DNA of 64,000 bases. It comes from Clostridia bacterium (GTDB lineage Bacteria > Bacillota > Clostridia > TANB77 > CAG-508). Position numbers and translations under genes: made by a program. Location: NCBI GenBank assembly GCA_017437145.1, contig JAFSBT010000002.1:22855-86854 (forward strand). Direction: 5' to 3'. Below are positions 44,495-45,222 of this stretch, in pieces. Within the stretch, counting starts at the first letter, position 1; each line of letters starts with the position of its first letter. The notes beneath the pieces were generated by a model that was not told where the DNA came from, did not search any database, and saw only the letters and a list, made by a program, of their open reading frames with translations.

Positions 44495-44523
44495 TTTATG
44501 AAATACAACAAATTCACATAATG

Positions 44524-44552
44524 TTGCATTTTTAAATTTATTGTGTTATAAT
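44524..44552 (+). promoter_or_regulatory. consensus sigma-A promoter for GC-rich foreign gene
   Basis: TTGCAT-17 nt-TATAAT. Confidence 0.55.
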
Positions 44553-44690
44553 TATGTTACTTTTAAATTAAGGGCAGTCACCCTGATTTAAATATTTTTC
44601 ATATTCCTCCATACATTATGCCTTTGGCGATAGGCCCGATAAAAAGGGCGAAATTTAAAAGCTACTTAAATGTAGCAAGGAGGAAAATAT

Positions 44691-45056
44691 ATGAAAAAGA
44701 ATATCCTGTGGCTTAGCCGCCACACAATGACACAGGCCCAATTTGAGGATCTCCAGCGTATTTATGGCGAGGTCGAGGTGAAGACCTTTGACAAGACCGT
44801 AAGCAGCTGGAGAGACGTCGCTGAAGCAGGTGCTGACTGCGACGTCTTGGCAGTGGTTTTACCACCTGCCATTCTCGCGGACCTCACCAACCCGCGAAAC
44901 AACTCCAAACCTGTTATAAGGGCAAAGGCAAATAGGGTTCCTACGGGAAATACCATTGTCAACCCTGCTACAGGAAAAGAAGAAGAGGAATATCGCTTCG
45001 AACACGCGGGCTGGGAGCGTGTCATTAAGATTGAGGTCGTGACCGAGGACCTTTAA
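44691..45056 (+). CDS. hypothetical protein encoded by GC-rich foreign gene (121 aa)
   Basis: ORF with GC far above flanks, perfect sigma-A promoter upstream, GGAGG RBS. Confidence 0.6.
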   Translation: MKKNILWLSRHTMTQAQFEDLQRIYGEVEVKTFDKTVSSWRDVAEAGADCDVLAVVLPPAILADLTNPRNNSKPVIRAKANRVPTGNTIVNPATGKEEEEYRFEHAGWERVIKIEVVTEDL

Positions 45057-45222
45057 TCTGTAATTTATAGCTTTCGGTTAAAGGCAGGATTCTACTTAGG
45101 TAGGGTCCTGTCTTTTAAATATAAAAAGATTTTATATAATTTTAAGTTTATATAGTTGAAAATAAAAAAGTGTTATGATATTCTAAAAATAATAAAAAAT
45201 TAATTGAGACGAGGAATTAAAT

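Follow-up and report, generated by a model that had tools for sequence, protein, structure and literature searches.

Our analysis of a 64,000-nt stretch of DNA from a Clostridia bacterium (hereafter, the window) indicates that a 121-aa open reading frame (ORF) with an unusually high G+C content is probably a stand-alone member of a protein family related to the ring nuclease Csx20, predicted to act as a cyclic oligoadenylate (cOA) off-switch or binder, and that its synonymous sites are kept GC-rich. We assign this combined reading a probability of about 0.55. Ring nucleases and cOA sponges decide between recovery and dormancy after type III immunity, and their catalogue is known to be incomplete. 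The gene would add to it a small protein that is related to Csx20 and derived from CRISPR systems but stands alone, is hyper-conserved, and has an anomalous composition, and with it a candidate ring-nuclease or sponge family that was previously unannotated. It also provides an unusually clean natural case of gene-specific synonymous-site constraint, with a third-position G+C (GC3) of 0.57 in a genome where the value is ~0.1, and this synonymous-site pattern is directly testable by recoding.

The G+C content of the ORF is 0.508, compared with 0.283 across the window, and a 300-nt sliding average rises from 0.28 to 0.51 and returns to 0.21, with the peak exactly over the ORF. The G+C values at its three codon positions are 0.57/0.39/0.57, compared with 0.45/0.35/0.11 for the neighboring rarA; glmS and the radical-SAM–HD (rSAM-HD) gene have values close to those of rarA. 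The window contains 57 non-nested ORFs that are 100 aa or longer, and no GC3 above 0.33 occurs among them except in this gene, the others spanning 0.09–0.33. The genes tuf, fusA, and rpsL have GC3 values of 0.20, 0.16, and 0.12, respectively, and with the tuf, fusA, and rps genes of the window reaching only 0.12–0.20, expression-linked codon bias cannot explain the GC3 of the 121-aa ORF, which rules out translational selection as its source. The deviation is real, lies mostly at synonymous sites and is far beyond the range of highly expressed genes. Thus, the GC-rich ORF in an AT-rich background that had been reported in a preliminary description of this DNA is borne out, as is the absence of in-frame CGG codons, the eight arginines being encoded by CGC (two), CGT (two), CGA, AGA, and AGG (two). 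The coordinates of this gene and of the other features discussed here are collected in Table 1. Two ORFs on the minus strand are the only others in the window with GC3 values above 0.20, and no Rfam match was found in their region.

Table 1. Coordinates of the features of the window
Feature	Position	Strand	Details
Two minus-strand ORFs	25699–26073; 26195–26572	−	~125 aa each; GC3 0.31–0.33
glmS ribozyme/riboswitch	40347–40503	+	Upstream of glmS; Rfam RF00234, 94.7 bits
rarA	43253–44494		Stops 196 nt 5′ of the GC-rich ORF
Promoter (read from the sequence)	44524–44552	+	TTGCAT (44524–44529), 17-nt spacer, extended −10 TGtTATAAT (44544–44552; TG at 44544–44545)
Structured 5′ leader	44559–44690	+	~130 nt; MFE −44.2 kcal/mol, z −4.22 against 200 dinucleotide shuffles
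Leader hairpin	44562–44592	+	
Anti-SD/anti-AUG stretch	44595–44610	+	TTTTTCATATTCCTCC; predicted to pair with GGAGGA (44679–44684) and ATATGAAAAA (44689–44698)
GC-rich ORF	44691–45056	+	121 aa, MKKNILWLSRH...
Intrinsic terminator	45081–45116	+	15-bp stem (45081–45095/45100–45114), apex CUAC-UUAG-GUAG, then a T run; MFE −23.5 kcal/mol, z −5.2
rSAM-HD fusion gene	45443–47404	+	653 aa
371-aa ORF	48353–49468	+	

The ORF lies within its own transcription unit. The promoter had been described as a textbook σA promoter with TTGCAT and TATAAT separated by 17 nt, and this arrangement is present, with a TG that creates an extended −10 element (TGnTATAAT), a strong feature of Firmicute-type promoters. 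The term textbook is an overstatement, however, as the −35 hexamer agrees with TTGACA at only three of six positions, which is also why a consensus scanner omitted this promoter. The GGAGG ribosome-binding site noted at the same time is also there, in the form AAGGAGG located 7–8 nt 5′ of the ATG, and all relatives that were examined harbor a GGAGG-type site 7–9 nt 5′ of their start codons. The leader contains a hairpin and two inverted repeats (I13 and I21). Downstream of the hairpin, the stretch TTTTTCATATTCCTCC pairs with the Shine–Dalgarno (SD) sequence and the start region, enclosing three small GC hairpins, such that the MFE and centroid structures both show the SD and the start codon paired. 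The leader of the window copy is therefore predicted, from these folding models, to sequester the ribosome-binding site.

Comparison with the relatives of the gene shows that these control elements are conserved together with the ORF. The relatives' promoters, located at the position matching that of the window promoter, take the form TTGAC-N-TTTATGTAAA-N-TATAAT, and the spacer TTTATGTAAA is kept ~90–120 nt 5′ of the start in eight loci (L012, L013, L014, L018, L019, L020, L025, and L026). The retention of TTTATGTAAA between the −35 and −10 elements despite unrelated flanks suggests that it may be an operator. A leader hairpin, UUCCUCGCUnnnACAGGAGGA, in which an anti-SD is paired to an SD-like sequence, is present in 11 loci, 61–68 nt before the AUG (49 nt in L019), and L013 and L019 show a compensatory UCCUU/AAGGA change in this hairpin. 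The window copy contains neither the TTTATGTAAA spacer nor the UUCCUCGCUnnnACAGGAGGA hairpin; its own anti-SD pairs directly with its own SD and AUG. Most relatives also carry a homologous terminator hairpin directly 3′ of the stop codon, with a covarying lower stem and the apex CUACAUUGUAG (CUACAAUGUAG in some), which is kept in at least 12 species (L011–L044). The sequence conservation of this apex suggests that the hairpin is recognized by something beyond its role in termination. Homology to the relatives ends at the promoter and at the terminator, and the flanks are not shared. As judged from these alignments, the ~600-bp unit of promoter, leader, ORF, and terminator is conserved as a cassette whose genomic surroundings are unrelated.

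Sequence comparisons indicate that the ORF is a genuine, strongly conserved protein gene. A homology search with the window protein recovered 413 proteins, the top 120 of which are 72–88% identical to it and 119–123 aa long. In DNA alignments conservation is limited to the ORF, the differences are concentrated at third positions and no indel breaks the frame; in the homolog alignment the protein columns are 78% identical on average, with frame, start, and stop preserved. The AlphaFold2 model of the window protein (pLDDT 93.9) contains three β-α units followed by a long two-stranded β-hairpin formed by residues 75–110. Minus-strand ORFs recur opposite the gene, and a functional antisense ORF was considered and rejected, as these frames are merely a by-product of the conserved GC-rich DNA.

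The mRNA of this gene is folded far more strongly than expected. The MFE of the ORF is ~−134 kcal/mol, compared with −34 to −84 kcal/mol for pieces of equal length from other genes of the window, and its z score is −4.2 to −4.9 against synonymous-codon shuffles and −5.03 against dinucleotide shuffles; the whole transcript has a z score of −9.1 against dinucleotide shuffles. Among 48 nonredundant homologs, the mean z score against synonymous shuffles is −2.73, with 60% below −2 and 8% above 0, and the folding z score is uncorrelated with GC3 (rho −0.17, P = 0.25). The most extreme values are those of L042 (−9.6), L040 (−8.2), L033 (−7.9), and L046 (−7.8), while a phage subclade, L049–L062, forms an exception with values near 0. 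In comparison, 16 chunks of other window genes have a mean z score of −0.51 (SD 1.28), and 38 chunks taken from flanking genes at eight loci average −1.12. In this second set, values lie near −0.5 for the bacterial loci and reach −2 to −5 for two large phage contigs. In these two contigs, L047 and L068 from IMG/VR (124 and 282 kb), ordinary flanking genes show z scores of −2.4 to −4.9 against synonymous shuffles, a hint that ordered RNA structure may extend across the genomes of these phages.

GC-rich islands of AT-rich genomes are often structured RNAs, and the strong folding raises the question of whether the segment is mainly a structured noncoding or dual-function RNA in which the ORF is incidental or secondary. 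The dinucleotide-shuffle scores of the transcript and the ORF and the conserved terminator apex would fit such an RNA, as would the difference between strands, with mean z scores of −3.04 for the sense and −2.29 for the antisense strand (Wilcoxon P = 0.0026). The greater stabilization of the sense strand indicates that the signal points to RNA rather than DNA. However, RNAalifold found zero consensus pairs in 46 ORFs, the closest clade reaches a structure conservation index of 0.23, and the only structures that recur are three short hairpins, each present in 12–18 of the 46 MFE structures. Together these results rule out a conserved RNA structure within the ORF, and the lack of consensus pairs and the low structure conservation show that the signal is one of generic foldedness, not of a conserved noncoding RNA. 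Rfam gave no match over the locus at the gathering threshold and only noise at E ≤ 10. With the codon-periodic substitutions and the preserved reading frame also against it, an RNA gene is hardly credible as the main identity of the segment.

The distribution of the gene bears on the origin of its composition. In the GTDB set with one genome per species, 34 loci were found, located in metagenome-assembled genomes of low-GC uncultured gut Clostridia and Clostridium sp. and in six Saccharibacteria. A further 29 loci are on IMG/VR contigs of 5–280 kb with ~40% G+C, in one case 48%, and on phage contigs the copies sit among genes for RecT, SSB, a metallo-hydrolase, or a UvsX-like recombinase. The stand-alone clade is thus common to gut Clostridia, Saccharibacteria, and phages; the phage genomes of INPHARED and the plasmids of PLSDB gave no match to the window protein or gene. 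All same-species contigs that cover the window locus carry the gene. In almost every carrier species it occupies a different, nonsyntenic place, and the neighbors of the window clade are not conserved save in one syntenic, genus-level group and for a recurrent 371-aa gene. The varying positions, together with the relatives on phage contigs and in Saccharibacteria, indicate that horizontal movement is part of the history of the gene. A prophage adjoining the gene in L007 and L011 (~6540–7700), where a tRNA 3′-half remnant is followed by an integrase and prophage genes (ERF, DUF3800, HTH) ~200 nt 3′ of the gene, was considered and set aside; it is integrated at the tRNA remnant and not in the gene.

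The surroundings of the window copy contain several genes of interest in their own right. Directly downstream of the GC-rich gene is the gene for the 653-aa fusion of a radical-SAM and an HD domain, which has subthreshold matches to PADLOC pVip (2e-13), NCBIfam viperin_w_prok (2.9e-12), and Cas3-type HD domains (4e-7). From these similarities, it may be a defense gene of unusual architecture. The 371-aa ORF, for which no Pfam, PADLOC, or PDB match was found, has 70%-identical homologs immediately 3′ of the GC-rich gene in L018 (6501–7886) and L020 (~3170–4580); in the window, orf66, the rSAM-HD gene, orf147, and orf68 separate the two. In L017 and L033, too, a homolog of orf147 is found close to the GC-rich gene.

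The preliminary description had viewed the gene as one dropped into an AT-rich genome. In its simplest form this would be a plain, recent horizontal acquisition from a donor or phage of ~50% G+C, as yet unameliorated and with unselected synonymous sites. The insertion position that differs in almost all species fits such an event, as do homologs on phage contigs of 40–48% G+C and in Saccharibacteria of 36–43% G+C, where gene and replicon are close to parity in composition (L038, L040, and L042). A patch in L022 (6001–6100) further suggests imported DNA: over these 100 nt, which lie at the 5′ end of the ORF, it differs from L028, L029, and L030 at 18 positions, while the flanks differ by ~2%. 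The homologs, however, argue against recent import as the reason for the high G+C. In 32 of the 34 species loci the G+C of the gene exceeds that of its flanks (flanks 0.22–0.34, gene 0.34–0.53, GC3 up to 0.64), and the same is true of every one of the 27 viral loci that could be measured, those on replicons of 40 and 48% G+C among them; on the 48% contig the gene reaches a G+C of 0.61 and a GC3 of 0.77. No compositional donor replicon was found among the GTDB species genomes, INPHARED, PLSDB, and IMG/VR, and no host of ~50% G+C among 185,579 species genomes. At four-fold degenerate sites, identity between the window gene and its homologs is 0.17–0.56, where 0.24–0.26 is expected by chance. These sites are near saturation, which means that the copies are old relative to synonymous turnover, yet GC3 is 0.4–0.64 where that of the host is ~0.1.

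A further comparison comes from the syntenic, vertically inherited clade L021/L022/L029/L030. Here, the gene retains a four-fold G+C (GC4) of 0.37–0.50 next to neighboring genes with 0.03–0.09, while four-fold identity has fallen to 0.53–0.74 in the neighbors and is 0.71–0.78 in the gene. In addition, the promoter, leader, and terminator are AT-rich and of Firmicute type and yet are conserved together with the GC-rich ORF, and transfer alone does not predict a folding excess over synonymous shuffles. On this evidence, horizontal exchange occurs, but the sequence data do not support a recent drop-in as the explanation for the G+C of the gene, and we consider plain recent acquisition unlikely. 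What remains of the earlier view is the alien composition, the independent transcription unit, and the horizontal movement in the history of the gene.

The high G+C could also be upheld mechanically, by recombination with phage alleles or by GC-biased gene conversion confined to the cassette, with no selection on the RNA. Phage homologs exist, the L022 patch resembles a recombination event, and among close strains the gene diverges faster than its surroundings, with a four-fold identity of 0.81–0.83 compared with 0.94–0.99 in the flanks. The mismatches in the L022 patch, however, are nearly all C-to-T or G-to-A relative to L021 and L028 and lower its G+C; from their pattern, the patch could be either a recombination tract or a local deamination-like burst. 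The phage alleles, moreover, are not GC-richer than the chromosomal ones, and mechanical upkeep predicts neither folding beyond that of synonymous permutations nor a bias toward the sense strand. We regard it as very improbable. We infer instead that selection on the mRNA maintains the synonymous pattern of the stand-alone clade. CRISPR-embedded relatives in AT-rich genomes, by comparison, are ordinary, with a G+C of 0.26–0.30, a GC3 of 0.13–0.19, and folding z scores of −2.1 and +1.1, from which it follows that the composition and folding trait belongs to the stand-alone lifestyle and not to the protein or its pathway.

The window protein (NCBI MBQ6991407.1) is labeled "hypothetical protein," as are all of its homolog clusters, and the preliminary description could assign it to no family. 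This stands insofar as Pfam, PHROGs, NCBIfam, and PADLOC gave no match at library thresholds; a PDB sequence-profile search returned nothing, and structure searches produced generic Rossmann-like matches only. The protein nevertheless falls into a large family that lacks annotation and has distant members associated with type III CRISPR systems and weakly matching Csx20. An exhaustive profile search recovered 472 clusters at 50% identity (E ≤ 1e-3), mostly solo proteins of 110–125 aa, that comprise members at the head of type III operons as well as the hyper-conserved stand-alone clade. In the longer members, Pfam was uninformative about fusion partners except for an LRR protein. The positions W7, S9, R10, Q17, L21, D51, P58, R82, and W108 are near-invariant across the family, and W7, S9, R10, D51, P58, R82, and W108 are common to stand-alone and CRISPR-embedded members.

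The distant, CRISPR-linked members are ~42–47% identical to the window protein and match the window-clade profile with E values of 1e-20 to 1e-31. In six loci they open type III CRISPR-Cas operons, usually directly upstream of a CARF-HEPN RNase. Typically, the family gene is followed, after a gap of 3–11 nt, by a gene for a 560–576-aa CARF-HEPN protein and then by genes for proteins of ~205 and ~320 aa, Cas10, and RAMPs. In L079–81 the order is Csm3, a 183-aa protein, the family gene, a CARF-HEPN protein (PADLOC, 3e-44), and Csx1 (5.5e-108). In L083 the family gene is followed by genes for 201- and 311-aa proteins, Cas10, and two RAMPs, and in L086 the family gene precedes that of a CARF protein (Csa3_N/MJ1674), followed by Cas6, a RAMP, and Csx19. 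In L088 the family gene is followed by genes for proteins of 562, 209, and 312 aa, Cas10, and RAMPs; the 562-aa neighbor is homologous to the CARF-HEPN protein of L079 (E = 3e-83) and carries an R-x4-H motif. L090 and L092 have arrangements similar to these. In two other loci, L093 (6504–8333) and L094 (882–2711), a β-CASP/RNase J-like gene beside the family member is read as four short ORFs under translation table 11; in the host, a stop codon is probably translated as an amino acid, and the family gene is nonetheless intact. No cas genes lie beside the window-clade copies and no CRISPR array was found in the 64 kb, although one stand-alone copy, in a member of the Nanosyncoccaceae (Saccharibacteria), is 1.1 kb from a gene with a Csx3 domain.

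A weak sequence similarity suggests that the family is remotely related to Csx20. The Csx20 model NF040559 (CAS_Csx20, 124 positions) matches 7 of 75 family members, with a best E value of 3e-4 and alignments that are collinear from the N terminus and cover ~50 N-terminal residues; the scores of P0134 and P0147 are 17 and 13.7 bits, respectively, where the curated cutoff is 70, and the window protein itself has no match to this model at E ≤ 0.01. Csx16 contains an "RHxGA...GTLP" pattern, and no match to Cas_VVA1548 was seen.

Combining these findings, we propose that the family consists of ~120-aa Rossmann-like (CARF-like) proteins that are remote kin of Csx20, and that its ancestral setting would have been the first gene of type III CRISPR-Cas accessory or effector operons, directly upstream of a cOA-activated CARF-HEPN RNase. 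The protein would bind, and probably cleave, cOA and in this way turn the signal off, with the near-invariant S9-R10-H11 loop, R82, and the long C-terminal β-hairpin as the likely cOA-handling elements. A chromosomal copy would serve the host, and a phage-borne copy would act against CRISPR. The window copy would represent a hyper-conserved clade that departed from CRISPR loci and moves as a self-contained ~600-bp cassette, the synonymous sites of which are GC-rich, probably through selection, and the mRNA of which is generically strongly folded.

The stand-alone clade could instead have a role outside cOA signaling, as a nucleotide-, phosphate-, or nucleic acid-binding protein, for example as the partner of a universally conserved machine, which would account for the ~80% identity across phyla. 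The window clade, without cas neighbors and with extreme surface conservation, is compatible with such a role, as are the generic Rossmann-like matches of the structure searches, and there is a precedent in Csx15, a ring-nuclease candidate that is inactive in vitro and, in 25% of cases, occurs in genomes other than those with type III systems (PMC12409355). The seven near-invariant residues shared between stand-alone and CRISPR-embedded members speak against it, however, as do the copy beside the Csx3-domain gene, the phage carriage, which fits an anti-CRISPR, and the viperin-like rSAM-HD gene adjoining the window copy. We therefore view a role outside cOA signaling as doubtful at best and favor the cOA off-switch or binder.

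What the folding would be for is a matter of speculation; the likeliest purpose would be a long-lived or nuclease-resistant and translationally gated transcript. A bolder version, to which we attach little credence, holds that the messenger of an off-switch or anti-CRISPR evolved to survive the response that it ends, its folding evading the collateral, single-strand-specific HEPN RNases of the Csx1/Csm6 type that are turned on by cOA. In this scheme, selection would favor G+C at synonymous sites together with generic folding that is not conserved, and the anti-SD leader would gate translation. The ordinary composition and folding of the CRISPR-embedded relatives call for caution on this point. 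If true, it would amount to a gene-specific "RNase-proof mRNA," resembling the genome-scale ordered RNA structure (GORS) of RNA viruses, in bacterial, CPR, and phage DNA genomes.

Comparison with known ring nucleases and CRISPR proteins places the family closest to Csx20, which has been confirmed by experiment as a cA4-specific ring nuclease, has a tight association with Csx1, and is occasionally phage-borne (PMC12409355). Like Csx20, the family has a small (~120 aa) derived-Rossmann/CARF-like fold with a five-stranded sheet flanked by helices, is carried occasionally by phages and, in its distant members, has Csx1-type CARF-HEPN effectors as neighbors within type III loci; the weak collinear matches of seven members add to this likeness. 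The family differs from Csx20 in that its scores, at most ~17 bits, are far below the cutoff, and in the character of the window clade, which is stand-alone, not linked to CRISPR, hyper-conserved, GC-rich, and over-folded. A second small protein, MJ1673 (PF27247) of Methanococcales type III-A loci, shares the small size and the position next to a MJ1674-type CARF protein, a likeness that rests on one faint precomputed Pfam match (P0142).

Crn4 (Unk01) and AcrIII-1/Crn2 are likewise small, probably dimeric off-switches, and phage and plasmid homologs of Crn4 and AcrIII-1 are thought to be anti-CRISPRs. Crn4 has a T-x-H loop, a conserved Arg, and a β-hairpin arm within a different fold (PMC12830947), and these elements are analogous to S9-x-H11, R82, and the hairpin of residues 75–110 in the window protein. 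Unlike the window protein, Crn4 is almost all β with a novel fold and AcrIII-1 is a DUF1874 protein; the window protein has neither the β-rich fold nor DUF1874, and neither of the two surfaced in the sequence or structure searches. At the level of the mRNA, a literature search for GC-rich structured coding regions found nothing specific, and the nearest parallel is the GORS of some RNA viruses. As in those genomes, the folding of the window gene is far above that of shuffled controls and involves no conserved base pairs. In contrast to GORS, the strong folding is limited to a single ~365-nt gene, in DNA genomes, and goes along with a shift in synonymous G+C.
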